Positions 35,743 to 38,160 of a stretch of 64,000 nucleotides of DNA are shown here, piece by piece. Below the pieces are notes generated by a model. It saw nothing but the letters and a program-made list of their open reading frames with translations, was not told the origin of the DNA and ran no database searches. Position numbers and translations under genes: made by a program. Origin of the DNA: a virus (Duplodnaviria > Caudoviricetes); IMG/VR virus record IMGVR_UViG_2657245717_000001, positions 1-64,000 of that record; one strand, given 5' to 3'. Each line of letters opens with the position of its first letter. Within the stretch, counting starts at the first letter, position 1.

Positions 35743-36795
35743 TCACGCGGACCAGGTTCCACGGATCGCTGCCGTGTTGAATCCGGGCCCGTAGGCGACC
35801 ATCACGCCCTGCGCCCCGGCTGCGGGCGGCTCCGCGTGCGTCCGCTCCAGAATCCGCAGCACCGACGGCCCGCCCAGGTTCCCTTCATCGGCGAGCGTCG
35901 CCGTCGAGTGGCGCGTGTCGTGCTCGTCCAGGCCGAGAGCCCGCGCCGTATCCGTGATGATCCGCTGACTGCCGGGGTGGATGACAGCCCAGTCCACGAT
36001 GTGCTGCTGGCCCAGCCACCCGGTGACGCCGGGCAGCACGTCGTCCGCAGCGCTGAGGGCTTCCTTCGTGGAGTCGAAGTGCAGGCCCGTGCTGTCGATG
36101 CGGCCGGCGTACCGGGTGAGACTGTCCGGGAGAACGTGCTCGTACGTGTCGGCCGGCCCGGCGAGGGTGAAGCCGGGGCCGTGGGGCTGGTCGCTGACAA
36201 TGGTCGCCGCGGCACTGTCCCCGAACAGCGCCTTGTAGATCATGTGCTCGACCTGGTTGTCGGCGTGGTTGTAGATCGTGGAGATGACCTCCGCAGCCAC
36301 CACCAGGACACGAGACCCGGGCCGGGCGGCCACCATGTCGGTGGCGCGGATGAGGGCCTGTGTGCCGCCGGCGCAGGCGAGGGTGGTCAGCCCGATCCGC
36401 TGCACAGTGGGCGACAGGCCGAGGCGCTGCACGAGGTGGATGTCGAGGCCGGGGACGGCCCAGCCGGTGGAGTGCGTGGTGACGATGCCGGTGATGTCGG
36501 CCGGGTCGAGGCCGTGGAGGGCGAGCGTGTCGCGGGCGGCTTGCTCGGCCATGTCGAGGGCATCTTCGAACGCCGCGGCTGCGCGGTTCCCGACGGGCGC
36601 GGTGCCGGTGATGGTGTCGGCGGTGAGCGGCCTGGTGAAGTGCCGGGTCTGCACTCCGGTGTTGCCGACGATGCGGAGGATGGACCGCAGCCGCGGATGG
36701 TCGGCGTGGTGGTGCCGAATGTCGTCCGCTATCTCAGCGGTGGTGACTTTGTGGGCGCCGAGGATGGTGGTGGGCTGGGCAATGTGGATGGCCAT
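35743..36795 (-). CDS. Type III polyketide synthase (RppA/PhlD/Gcs-like)
   Basis: Cys-His-Asn triad (LACAGG, IHPGS, EGNLGG); ALFGDSAAA; YGPGF; NTGVQTRH. Confidence 0.95.
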   Translation of the reverse strand: MAIHIAQPTTILGAHKVTTAEIADDIRHHHADHPRLRSILRIVGNTGVQTRHFTRPLTADTITGTAPVGNRAAAAFEDALDMAEQAARDTLALHGLDPADITGIVTTHSTGWAVPGLDIHLVQRLGLSPTVQRIGLTTLACAGGTQALIRATDMVAARPGSRVLVVAAEVISTIYNHADNQVEHMIYKALFGDSAAATIVSDQPHGPGFTLAGPADTYEHVLPDSLTRYAGRIDSTGLHFDSTKEALSAADDVLPGVTGWLGQQHIVDWAVIHPGSQRIITDTARALGLDEHDTRHSTATLADEGNLGGPSVLRILERTHAEPPAAGAQGVMVAYGPGFNTAAIRGTWSA

Positions 36796-36961
36796 GAGGT
36801 CTCCCCTGGGCAGTTTCTGAACCGGGTGCGGGGGAGTGCTCACGGTACGGCTCTTTGGCTTGATCGTTGCCCCGGCTTTTCGCCGTCTTGATGCGTGACC
36901 AGCGGCGTGTGGGGCCGCCGCTGGTGTGGTGGTGCGCGTGGGGTGGCTGAGACGCGTGTGG

Positions 36962-37786
36962 TCAGCGTGCTCGGAGCATCGGTGTGCGGGCGTGCGCACG
37001 CTCCGGCCCCGCGTGGAAGACGAGGATGACGAGGCGGGCGCCGGGTGCGGCCATCGGCTGCGCCGCGCACATCGTCACCCACCCATCCCCCAGTACCGCG
37101 TGCCGTATCGGCCGCTCGTCGCCGTCCGGGTGGATGTAGCCCGTCGAGCCCTGCGTGTACAGGGCGTGGAGTTCGGGGTCGGCGTGCACGTCCCGCTCGA
37201 TCGCCTGAAGGATGGGGTCGTCGGGGCGGGCGGCGAGCGCCGCCTGAAGCTGAGGGAGGACGAACGGGGCCCAGGCGGTCGCCCAGTCGTTGAGGTGTTC
37301 GCGGCCGTCCCACAACATCCACCTCATGGTGTTGTCCGGGGCTTTCCTGTCGGGGAACAGCTCGGCGAACTGCGCGTTGCAGGCCAGCAGGCCCCACGAT
37401 GCGTCCGTCACGTACGCCATGTGCGTGATGCCGTCCACCGCCGTCTGCCACACCCCCGGCACCTGGTGCCCGGACTGCGGGTAGAGGGGCGCCGGCGGGT
37501 CCTCCGCGCGCGCGTACCGGTACAGGGCCACCCACTCCTGCTCGGTGAGTGAGAGGAGCTGCGCTACGGCCTGGAGGAGGTCTGAGGGCGGGTGTTTGTA
37601 GATCCCTGATTCGAGGCGGTGGTAGGTGCCGATGGCCCGGTTGGTGAGGAAGTCGACTTGTTGTTGGGAGAGGCCGGGTGCGCGGCGTCCGCTGCCGGTG
37701 GGGCGGGTGAGGCCGTGGGTGGTGGGGTCGATGAGGGCGCGTCGTTCTTGGAGGAGGGCTTGGAGGGCTTTTTTGCGGGTGTGCAT
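36962..37786 (-). CDS. MmyB-family regulator (XRE HTH plus PAS-like ligand-binding domain)
   Basis: L..RR..IDP..GL....GRRAPGLSQQQV...Y.RLESG; AYVTD..W.LLACN..F..LF. Confidence 0.9.
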   Translation of the reverse strand: MHTRKKALQALLQERRALIDPTTHGLTRPTGSGRRAPGLSQQQVDFLTNRAIGTYHRLESGIYKHPPSDLLQAVAQLLSLTEQEWVALYRYARAEDPPAPLYPQSGHQVPGVWQTAVDGITHMAYVTDASWGLLACNAQFAELFPDRKAPDNTMRWMLWDGREHLNDWATAWAPFVLPQLQAALAARPDDPILQAIERDVHADPELHALYTQGSTGYIHPDGDERPIRHAVLGDGWVTMCAAQPMAAPGARLVILVFHAGPERAHARTPMLRAR

Positions 37787-38160
37787 GTTCGGATTCCCCC
37801 GTGCTACTGACTGGTTATCAAGCCGGTTCTTGTGGGCGTGTTTTTGGTGTGAAAAACCTACCGAAGAAAGGTGGTGGGTGTGTGGTGCATGCTCGGTTCT
37901 GCGGCGCTCCGCCTGGTCCTGTTGGGGCTGGTGTGGGGGGTTGTGGCCGTCTCGTGACAGTGCTGTGGCGGGGTTCCGGGGATTCCGGGTTTCCGCTTGC
38001 GGTGGTGTCAGCTTTTTAGGGGCGTGCAGGGAGTCGAATTCGCGGCTTGGGTGGCCGTGAATACCGCAGCCTCTCCTTGCACGTCCCTTTTCTGCTGCCC
38101 GAAATCGGGGTGGGGAAGCAGCGGGGGCGGCCCGGTGGGGTCGGGCCGCCGGTGGTGCGG

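Follow-up and report, generated by a model that had tools for sequence, protein, structure and literature searches.

The closest described system is vioA/vioB of S. somaliensis SCSIO ZH66, a two-gene cluster on a circular plasmid of ~85 kb (Huang 2016, PMC4924298). This plasmid is a relative of pCQ3 and pCQ4, to whose ORFs the small ORFs flanking its vio genes are homologous. According to the same report, deletion of vioA abolished violapyrone B, deletion of vioB raised it about eightfold, and deletions of flanking ORFs were without effect; the identities given are 95% between VioA and pCQ3.110c and likewise 95% between VioB and pCQ4.19c (PMC4924298). Moreover, vioA alone is described as sufficient for violapyrones in three hosts, and VioA is placed nearest to Cpz6, clustering with DpyA and Gcs (Hou 2018, PMC5898002). 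The product and its repression by VioB have been established by others in a plasmid near-identical to the one we studied.

Three further systems are comparable in part. The plasmid-phage pZL12, a Streptomyces phage-plasmid of the ~86-90-kb class, carries a regulator-then-PKS pair (pZL12.99/pZL12.100), and the pZL12-like Streptomyces phage-plasmid pSLE1 carries a type III PKS; the pSLE1 paper remarked on both the PKS and the synteny with pZL12. Unlike for vioA/vioB, no product is assigned in the pZL12 and pSLE1 annotations. Germicidin synthase (Gcs, 3v7i) and Cpz6 are bacterial type III PKSs of the VioA clade that make alkyl-alpha-pyrones from fatty-acid-derived starters (PMC5898002), but Cpz6, judging by the published description of its context (PMC4924298), and presumably Gcs lack a VioB-type partner. 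The MmyB/MltR family, finally, shares with VioB a PAS-like ligand-binding domain and, probably, an XRE helix-turn-helix. MltR binds fatty acid, myristic acid having been present in its crystal, and MmyB is described as a pathway activator (Xu 2012, PMC3406030), whereas VioB acts as a repressor (PMC4924298).

Here, we examined a regulator-PKS pair in a window of 64,000 nucleotides (positions 1 to 64,000 of IMG/VR record IMGVR_UViG_2657245717_000001; Table 1). The whole record is a single contig of 88,079 bp. PHROGs comparisons assign virion-type genes to it (large terminase, portal, major head, tape measure, tail fibre and peptidase) together with an FtsK/SpoIIIE-like protein and a DnaB-like helicase, and Pfam adds ParA, an integrase and ERF. 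By its predicted gene content, the element is a pZL12-type phage-plasmid, with virion and lysis genes and partition or transfer genes on one replicon.

Table 1. Features of the vio locus, in window coordinates
Feature	Position	Strand	Basis or remark
vioA orthologue, type III polyketide synthase, 350 aa	35743..36795, stop codon included	-	Pfam, triad alignment, identities
Promoter-like motif GGCAAC-N18-TACCGT	36842..36871	-	Pattern scan; end 46 nt upstream of vioA start
G+C-rich hairpin, arms CCAGCGGCG / CGCCGCTGG, between vioB and vioA	36899..36924	-	Read from sequence by eye
vioB orthologue, putative XRE-type HTH + MmyB-like ligand-binding domain, 274 aa	36962..37786	-	Pfam, identities
11-mer GGTTATCAAGC	37813-37823	+	27-37 nt upstream of vioB start
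Inverted repeat GTTTTT-N6-AAAAAC, vioB promoter region	37840..37857	.	Conserved alignment columns; candidate operator
G+C-rich hairpin, arms GGCGGCCCG / CGGGCCGCC	38126..38150	-	By eye; directly past stop of preceding gene 38161-38568

The PKS gene is predicted to be intact, with a Cys-His-Asn triad. Both CHS-like domains are present (Chal_sti_synt_N, 2.4e-26 and 93 bits; Chal_sti_synt_C, 28.8 bits; Pfam cut-off 27 for each). All 12 aligned homologues share C141, H273 and N306, which line up in the solved THN synthase 1u0m with a Cys, a His and an Asn that we take to be its catalytic residues. The nearest solved structures in a PDB search are 1u0m, germicidin synthase 3v7i (second best, 3.2e-40) and Pks11. 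By eye, position 231 of the translation is Gly, in line with the 'G231L variant of VioA' that appears in abstracts. No NCBIfam model matched the protein at its cut-off, the best being DpgA at 117.9 bits against 425. NCBI annotation names these proteins PhlD, after the enzyme of 2,4-DAPG clusters that makes phloroglucinol; this is probably a misnomer, since the characterised orthologue produces violapyrones. TTA codons, a sign of bldA control, occur in neither vioA nor vioB.

The regulator has an MLTR_LBD domain (PF17765) at residues 118-266 (2.8e-12; 47.5 bits, cut-off 26.3). At its N-terminus, HTH_31 (21.9 bits, cut-off 27) and HTH_3 (16.9 bits, cut-off 23) are both sub-threshold; residues 41-100 form helices at pLDDT 80-94 in an AF2 model, and for a chromosomal homologue the HTH_31 score is 29.5 bits. 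The model as a whole is poor (mean pLDDT 63.6), too weak for inspecting the ligand pocket, and its sole Foldseek match in the PDB at E <= 0.001, MltR (3pxp), is read from this weak model at a TM of 0.27. The regulator sequence itself matched nothing in the PDB at E <= 0.01. A literature search on vioB and violapyrones from 2019 on, judged by titles, gave what appear to be reviews and no ligand or operator of VioB.

Both proteins have close counterparts on known plasmids. The PKS shares 331 of 350 residues (94.6%) with pCQ3.110c, 94.6% with the pCQ4 PKS and 75.4% with pZL12.100; the regulator is identical to that of pCQ3 (274/274, 100%) and of an S. albidoflavus plasmid (100%), and shares 259 of 274 residues (94.5%) with pCQ4.19c and 65.7% with pZL12.99. 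The pZL12 pair, at 75% for the PKS and 66% for the regulator, also has different flanking genes. As in ZH66, a 350-aa type III PKS has an XRE/MmyB regulator of ~272-274 aa directly upstream, and identity to VioA/VioB comes to ~95%, inferred through pCQ3.110c and pCQ4.19c and the percentages printed in Huang 2016. Our analysis shows the genes to be intact and supports this orthology. Judged by these identities, the pair is already known as an orthologue of vioA/vioB, and it is very probably the vioB-vioA violapyrone cassette itself, with pyrone-making VioA and its repressor VioB forming a mobile unit that is cargo here. The vio papers never call the ZH66 plasmid a phage-plasmid, whereas the present record has a full head-tail-lysis module; the word 'phage' occurs 0 times in Huang 2016 and in Hou 2018, and phage release, transfer and germination lie outside both studies.

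Much of what an earlier note had read from the letters of this stretch agrees with these results: an intact type III PKS with Cys-His-Asn, an MmyB-type regulator directly upstream, a phage-plasmid setting and no tailoring or export genes nearby. Its suggestion that vioAB might already represent such a pair was correct, and the comparison it proposed with VioA/VioB and Gcs gave the identities and the 3v7i match above. We saw no tailoring or export genes among the flanking ORFs scanned, which carry NERD, DUF6233, DUF6085 or HIT domains or match no family.

The two genes lie on the same strand, the PKS starting 166 nt downstream of the regulator stop codon. Between them, GGCAAC-N18-TACCGT is a candidate vioA promoter, and its -10-like GTACGTTG block is kept across 92 aligned intergenic regions. 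The intergenic hairpin (CCAGCGGCG/CGCCGCTGG) is retained in the S. albidoflavus plasmid and partly in pCQ4. Upstream of vioB, the hairpin with arms GGCGGCCCG and CGGGCCGCC lies past the stop of the preceding gene, which suggests that vioB has its own promoter. There, the GTTTTT-N6-AAAAAC repeat, preceded on the coding strand by TTTCTTCGG, is a candidate operator. Its T-run and A-run, together with TTTTCT.CGG columns, are kept in aligned vioB upstream regions of chromosomal and phage-plasmid loci alike. It occurs once in the 88-kb element, even when relaxed to T4-N6-8-A4. An operator common to both vio promoters was sought among 12-mers with up to 2 mismatches across 92 loci and rejected, no position pair recurring in more than 3 loci. 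Pfam identified no phage-encoded sigma factor among 10 ORFs flanking the pair; pZL12.7c carries a sigma-H factor annotation. RNA libraries cover small shares of the stretch, as contigs only: a soil metatranscriptome gives a 229-nt contig on vioA, and a run guessed to be RNA gives pieces on the vioA 5' end and on the vioB 5' end and upstream, all of which may be DNA carry-over and give no level, strand or start.

The earlier note had also drawn attention to the 11-mer upstream of the regulator, which recurs in the inverted repeats of the element. The sequence is indeed present at both places: further copies at 2335 (+) and 15025 (-) fall within an inverted repeat (2305-2350 / 15020-15065) that our tool gives as 46 nt and 98% complementary, as against the 43 bp stated. 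Its significance did not hold up. Of the 11-mers in the 374-nt stretch preceding the regulator, 41 are found again in other parts of the window, where 2000 Markov shuffles gave 32 on average; 26% of the shuffles contain at least one shared A/T-rich 11-mer. The raw count with up to 1 mismatch (4 matches against 0.25 expected) is deceptive because a single repeat contributes two of the matches, one per arm. The 11-mer lines up with a -10-like box (TAGACT / TAGGCT) of relatives and is not kept in pCQ3 or pZL12. Being at chance level, and missing in pCQ3 despite an identical regulator, it is rejected as a regulatory link.

The vioA promoter-like motif belongs to a wider family in the element. GG[CG]AA[CT]-N18-[CT][AT]NNNT has 9 matches, against 3.19 +/- 1.94 in 100 shuffles, and 7 of the 9 sit 20-100 nt upstream of a same-strand ORF start, heading vioA, a terS-like gene, the portal gene, a 258-aa ORF, a tail gene, the peptidase gene and a 62-aa ORF. 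Among vioA copies, the motif lies in front of 17 of 32 at phage-plasmid loci, 2 of 46 at large-contig loci and 0 of 17 where the context is unknown; across independent pairs (7-8 pairs, median p 0.5) the association fails, in a test without power. That vioA shares its motif with packaging, tail and lysis operons is a hint, though not a robust one, that it may be wired to the phage programme. The family was rejected as a general trait of pZL12-type elements, with only ~3 of the 8 matches in pZL12 heading a gene.

How is the cassette distributed? An alignment-based scan of genome contigs gave 209 relatives, the best 80 of which we used; a single-protein search of the same contigs had returned no related loci. 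Pairing is strict: in all 80 of these best loci the regulator lies upstream of the PKS on the same strand, 90-387 nt away, and it adjoins the PKS in 37 plasmid records counted by hand, down to ~37-43% identity. Among the same 80, only 17 have another element gene within 10 kb, and ~36 are surrounded by the same chromosomal genes, those for peptide deformylase, MurT/GatD, acyl-CoA dehydrogenase and TetR. Because the other 63 loci have no such element gene and ~36 lie among housekeeping genes, the cassette functions without a phage. The tree of relatives requires at least 7-8 switches between genomic contexts. The pair is kept in 26 of 34 capsid-bearing Streptomycetaceae plasmids, more than is expected for dispensable cargo; for the other 8, a PKS is absent among the best 60 of 78 matches, the remaining 18 ranking below a 30.6%-identity match. 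VioB-like regulators of 60-62% identity also occur as orphans, without a PKS, on linear plasmids. Supplementary Table S3 of Hou 2018 (PMC5898002) lists 21 genomes with vioAB loci, which may overlap our set. That study places most loci on linear plasmids (PMC5898002), in contrast to ours, in which most are chromosomal or on circular plasmids of ~85-100 kb.

These features are compatible with a simple working model. VioA would draw beta-ketoacyl or acyl starters from host fatty-acid metabolism, add a methylmalonyl or ethylmalonyl extender and lactonise the chain to 3-methyl-4-hydroxy-6-alkyl-alpha-pyrones, for which no tailoring enzyme should be necessary. VioB would hold vioA low, presumably as a dimer bound in the vio promoter regions, and it probably leaves the DNA once a lipophilic ligand, be it a fatty-acyl compound or the pyrone, occupies its PAS-like domain. 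In this model the cassette is a self-contained mobile unit of Streptomyces chromosomes and pZL12-type phage-plasmids, here probably carried as cargo where a leftward early operon ends. Its likeliest benefit to the element would be an antibacterial or growth-inhibiting lipophilic pyrone that aids the carrier strain.

Could the pyrone have another role? It might target spores or hyphae of its host and, for instance, delay germination, in which case chromosomal and phage-plasmid copies would do the same thing and the phage cycle would be uninvolved. Germicidin inhibits germination, and 3v7i is close to our PKS among solved structures. VioA groups with Gcs in the published tree (Hou 2018, PMC5898002), violapyrones are germicidin-like 3-alkyl-4-hydroxy-6-alkyl-alpha-pyrones (PMC4924298, PMC5898002), and a developmentally altered wblA mutant is reported to show vioB down and vioA up (PMC4924298). 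However, the activities described for violapyrones, in PMC4924298 and in abstracts, are anti-MRSA and anti-influenza, a literature search judged by the titles listed found no germination test of a violapyrone, and we regard a self-inhibitor as improbable. Far less probable still is a sulfate carrier that passes sulfate to another metabolite, like the Cpz6 products in caprazamycin biosynthesis. Violapyrones are presulficidins and Cpz6 is the closest characterised relative of VioA (PMC4924298, PMC5898002), but the authors themselves pointed out the differing context (PMC4924298), and neither sulfotransferase nor nucleoside-antibiotic genes were found among the flanking ORFs scanned.

The earlier note had raised the possibility that a polyketide signal governs lysis, transfer or host germination. 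Such a module, in which a diffusible alkyl-pyrone from VioA is sensed by VioB and tunes the plasmid-to-lytic switch and/or conjugal transfer, directly or through vioA-linked genes, has precedents in alpha-pyrone signals (photopyrones) and in the quorum sensing of phage-plasmid VP882. The invariable company of a synthase and a ligand-binding-type regulator would suit it, and we retain the idea because most capsid-bearing relatives keep the pair, orphan VioB-like regulators that could be listeners exist, and vioA bears the element's motif, more often before phage-plasmid than large-contig copies. Its link to the element is nevertheless unsupported, because the 11-mer fits chance and is unconserved, the conserved vioB-promoter repeat is found nowhere else in the element and most pairs are chromosomal without phage genes. 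Moreover, no 12-mer is consistently common to both vio promoters, the motif's association with context fails among independent pairs, few pZL12 matches head a gene, and 8 capsid-bearing relatives lack the pair. We therefore consider signalling of this kind unlikely. A little more doubtful again is that pZL12-type phage-plasmids took the cassette over from the chromosome and put it under their own promoter type. The pyrone would in that case be produced while the phage programme is running, as a diffusible, VioB-sensed cue by which neighbouring carriers and orphan-receptor plasmids adjust lysis, transfer or germination.

What would these readings mean for actinomycete phages? None of our results points strongly to feedback of the pyrone on the phage-plasmid life cycle; if it occurred, an actinomycete phage would for the first time be seen to communicate by a small molecule, and a recruited and rewired cassette would give actinomycetes a small-molecule analogue of arbitrium. 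With the violapyrone cassette as the preferred reading, the 'type III PKS of unknown role' noted on pZL12-like phage-plasmids in the pSLE1 paper would be VioA, accompanied by its repressor VioB. The type III PKS of plasmid prophages (Sharma 2023, PMC10023795) would likewise be the violapyrone synthase VioA with VioB, and the 'plasmid' of the vio papers would be a phage-plasmid. The main value of re-discovering this published two-gene cluster is that it joins two literatures.

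The earlier note had described an intact Cys-His-Asn type III PKS directly downstream of an MmyB-type regulator, with no tailoring or export genes, on a phage-plasmid. This description was borne out, since the PKS has its domains and triad, the regulator has its MmyB-like domain, phage-plasmid genes are present, and the ORFs flanking the cassette, which encode NERD, DUF6233, DUF6085, and HIT proteins and unnamed products, yielded neither tailoring nor export genes. Across 12 aligned homologues (36-77% identity), the PKS residues Cys141, His273, and Asn306 never vary, and in THN synthase 1u0m, whose structure is solved, the aligned residues are likewise Cys, His, and Asn. 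Among solved structures the closest are 1u0m itself (1.9e-40), germicidin synthase 3v7i (3.2e-40), and Pks11, an alpha-pyrone synthase. The regulator lies upstream of the PKS on the same strand, 166 nt away, and its XRE helix-turn-helix is a weak match. Its AlphaFold model, for which 23 homologues were used, is of low quality (mean pLDDT 63.6); in Foldseek this predicted fold has a single PDB match at E <= 0.001, MltR (3pxp), the founding structure of the MmyB-like family. The source record is a single 88,079-bp contig whose first 64 kb form the window, G+C content is ~70% across the whole window, and, judged by its sequence, the replicon is a phage-plasmid. Compared with the window, pCQ3 (NC_013449.1) shows strong mosaicism: the regulator is 100% identical and the major capsid protein only 49%.

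The suspected parallel with the violapyrone genes proved to be closer than a parallel. By sequence, the window pair is the published vioB-vioA, linked through plasmids pCQ3 and pCQ4 and the identities printed in Huang et al. 2016 (PMC4924298). The window PKS matches pCQ3.110c at 331 of 350 residues, and the regulator matches its pCQ3 counterpart at 274 of 274 and pCQ4.19c at 259 of 274; that paper gives VioA (350 aa) as 95% identical to pCQ3.110c and VioB (272 aa, XRE family) as 95% identical to pCQ4.19c. The DNA of the region is 95.6% identical to a Streptomyces albidoflavus plasmid and 93% to pCQ4. Plasmid-phage pZL12 matches the PKS DNA at 77%, and its copy of the pair carries the annotations pZL12.99 and pZL12.100. 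Clustered at 90% identity, the PKS and the regulator fall into groups of 32 and 30 members; those listed come mainly from the S. albidoflavus group and lie on 76-88-kb contigs. In Huang et al., the vio genes sit on a circular plasmid of ~85 kb in S. somaliensis ZH66, deletion of vioA abolished violapyrone B, and deletion of vioB raised it about eightfold. Deletions of flanking ORFs had no effect, and the vio cluster therefore consists of just vioA and vioB. Hou et al. 2018 (PMC5898002) report that vioA alone gives violapyrones in three hosts, place VioA beside Cpz6, with DpyA and Gcs, and describe 21 further genomes bearing vioAB loci. Neither the pair nor its product is new. NCBI names the window PKS and its homologues 'PhlD', which is probably misleading because the characterised orthologue makes violapyrones; no NCBIfam model reached its cut-off on the window PKS, the top one being DpgA (117.9 bits vs 425).

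Coordinates of the cassette, its candidate control elements, and the genes that mark the replicon
Feature	Position	Strand	Basis or remark
Type III PKS (vioA), 350 aa	35743-36795	(-)	both chalcone/stilbene-synthase domains above Pfam cut-offs
MmyB-like regulator (vioB), 274 aa	36962-37786	(-)	ligand-binding domain 47.5 bits (cut-off 26.3)
vioB-promoter repeat GTTTTT-N6-AAAAAC	37840-37857		window form of conserved T-run/A-run
Promoter-like motif GG[CG]AA[CT]-N18-[CT][AT]NNNT	36842, 41889, 47742	(-)	pattern scan, whole-record coordinates
Promoter-like motif GG[CG]AA[CT]-N18-[CT][AT]NNNT	64146, 66822, 68779, 74626, 86623	(+)	pattern scan, whole-record coordinates
46-nt inverted repeat, two arms	2305-2350, 15020-15065		98% complementary
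~32-nt near-perfect palindrome, four copies	11134-11165, 22921-22953, 28921-28954, 41944-41977		CATACTCCATTGCG..CGCAATGGAGTATG
ParA, tyrosine integrase, ERF recombinase, DnaB-like helicase, FtsK/SpoIIIE-like protein	within window
Large terminase, portal, major head protein, tape measure, tail fibre, peptidase	64.6-87.6 kb

How widely does the pair travel? Scanning one genome per species by alignment gave 209 relatives. Among the best 80 of these, all 80 have a VioB homologue 90-387 nt upstream on the same strand, and at least 37 PLSDB records (hand count) share this layout, at identities as low as about 37-43%; the regulator-PKS pairing is therefore as strict as possible. Only 17 of the same best 80 have another element gene within 10 kb (tblastn of 223 element ORFs, E <= 1e-8, antisense shadows of vioA/vioB excluded). 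Contigs of at least 150 kb carry 46 loci, two of these contigs being complete chromosomes, and ~36 loci have a common neighbourhood of peptide deformylase, MurT/GatD, acyl-CoA dehydrogenase, isochorismatase, and TetR genes. In a quick maximum-likelihood tree (96 PKS sequences), copies from phage-plasmids and copies from large contigs intermingle, requiring at least 7-8 context changes. The window PKS belongs to a clade of five, all from phage-plasmids (support 100), within a clade of 24 comprising 15 phage-plasmid, 8 large-contig, and 1 unknown (support 99). Phage-plasmids carry the cassette in at least three positions: next to DUF6233/NERD genes, next to the terminase (in a Kitasatospora plasmid), and close to portal and capsid genes. 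Strict pairing, varied settings, and an interleaved tree together indicate that the cassette is a mobile two-gene unit of the genus, often, but not always, acquired by this phage-plasmid family. Among the matches listed, the PKS is present in 26 of 34 Streptomycetaceae plasmids with a homologue of the element's major capsid protein.

The eight capsid-bearing plasmids absent among the PKS matches listed include one of S. ambofaciens ATCC 23877; in seven of the eight the capsid protein is 64-69% identical, and a sub-lineage without the cassette may thus exist. Individual loci also vary. In pCQ4 (locus positions 6639-7294), an insertion of two small ORFs (about 780 bp) separates vioB from vioA; the hairpin and vioA promoter region are kept. 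The linear plasmids NZ_CP108296.1 and NZ_CP108254.1 (locus positions 3953-4789) encode VioB-like regulators (60-62% identity) with no PKS downstream; a 76-aa ORF, DUF3995, a sigma factor, and an SRPBCC protein come next. The distant cassette of the 134-kb plasmid NZ_CP108098.1 (locus positions 1993-5041) has an MBL-fold hydrolase between regulator and PKS, with FabG and SDR genes close by, and may be a variant pathway.

Upstream of vioB, phage-plasmid and chromosomal copies conserve TTTTCTTCGG, then a T-run, six bases, and an A-run. The window form of this repeat occurs nowhere else in the 88 kb and is the best candidate for an operator. The region upstream of vioA has two conserved blocks, GTACGTTG and GGGG(C/A)AA, and no 12-mer is consistently shared by the two promoters. 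G+C-rich hairpins follow both vioB and the gene preceding it, which suggests that vioB, vioA, and the preceding gene are separate transcription units.

The earlier note had pointed to an 11-mer upstream of the regulator that also occurs inside the inverted repeats. The sharing is real, as the two other copies both lie in arms of the 46-nt repeat, but the regulatory link fails: at least one shared A/T-rich 11-mer arises in 26% of Markov shuffles, and the 11-mer is altered in pCQ3, whose regulator is identical, and absent in pZL12. The 374-nt region upstream of vioB has 41 11-mers that recur elsewhere in the window (shuffles average 32), and in aligned vioB upstream regions the 11-mer coincides with what is, in relatives, a -10-like box (TAGACT or TAGGCT). 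The inverted repeat brackets 12.7 kb with epimerase/dehydratase, tyrosine integrase, and ERF recombinase genes; elsewhere, each arm was found, at two positions, only in pCQ3, pCQ4, and the S. albidoflavus plasmid. A duplicated promoter region is one possible interpretation, an invertible or mobile segment another. The four palindromes are probably operators for a master repressor at operon heads, and the rightmost heads a leftward operon ending just before vioB.

Is the cassette wired into the phage? The promoter-like motif has 9 matches in the element, vs 3.19 +/- 1.94 (maximum 9) in 100 shuffles, and 7 of these stand 20-100 nt ahead of an ORF that starts on the same strand (vioA, terS-like, portal, a 258-aa ORF, a tail gene, peptidase, and a 62-aa ORF), with packaging, tail, and lysis genes among them. 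Across relatives it precedes vioA at 17 of 32 loci on phage-plasmids, at 2 of 46 on large contigs, and at none of the 17 whose context is unknown; a test on independent pairs had only 7-8 usable pairs (median p 0.5). Of the 8 matches in pZL12, only about 3 stand at the head of a gene, and the motif is not general there. The motif at vioA thus hints at a tie to the phage programme, a lead rather than a result. That synthase and regulator form a phage-plasmid signalling module is a fair hypothesis weakened by the tests here, and we now consider it very unlikely. A germicidin-like role in germination is just as improbable, and a presulficidin-like role is less likely still. Our literature searches found no report testing violapyrones on phage release, transfer, or germination and no paper joining violapyrone work with phage-plasmid work; the word 'phage' is absent from both vio papers (PMC4924298, PMC5898002).

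By orthology, VioA would make 3-methyl-4-hydroxy-6-alkyl-alpha-pyrones from fatty-acid-derived starters, and VioB would hold VioA down. Because the sole liganded MmyB-family structure reported in Xu 2012 (PMC3406030) holds a fatty acid, it is reasonable to infer that the VioB effector would be lipophilic, either starter or product. Violapyrones inhibit Gram-positive bacteria, according to Huang et al. 2016 (PMC4924298). The most economical reading is that the cassette is locally regulated cargo that benefits its carrier.
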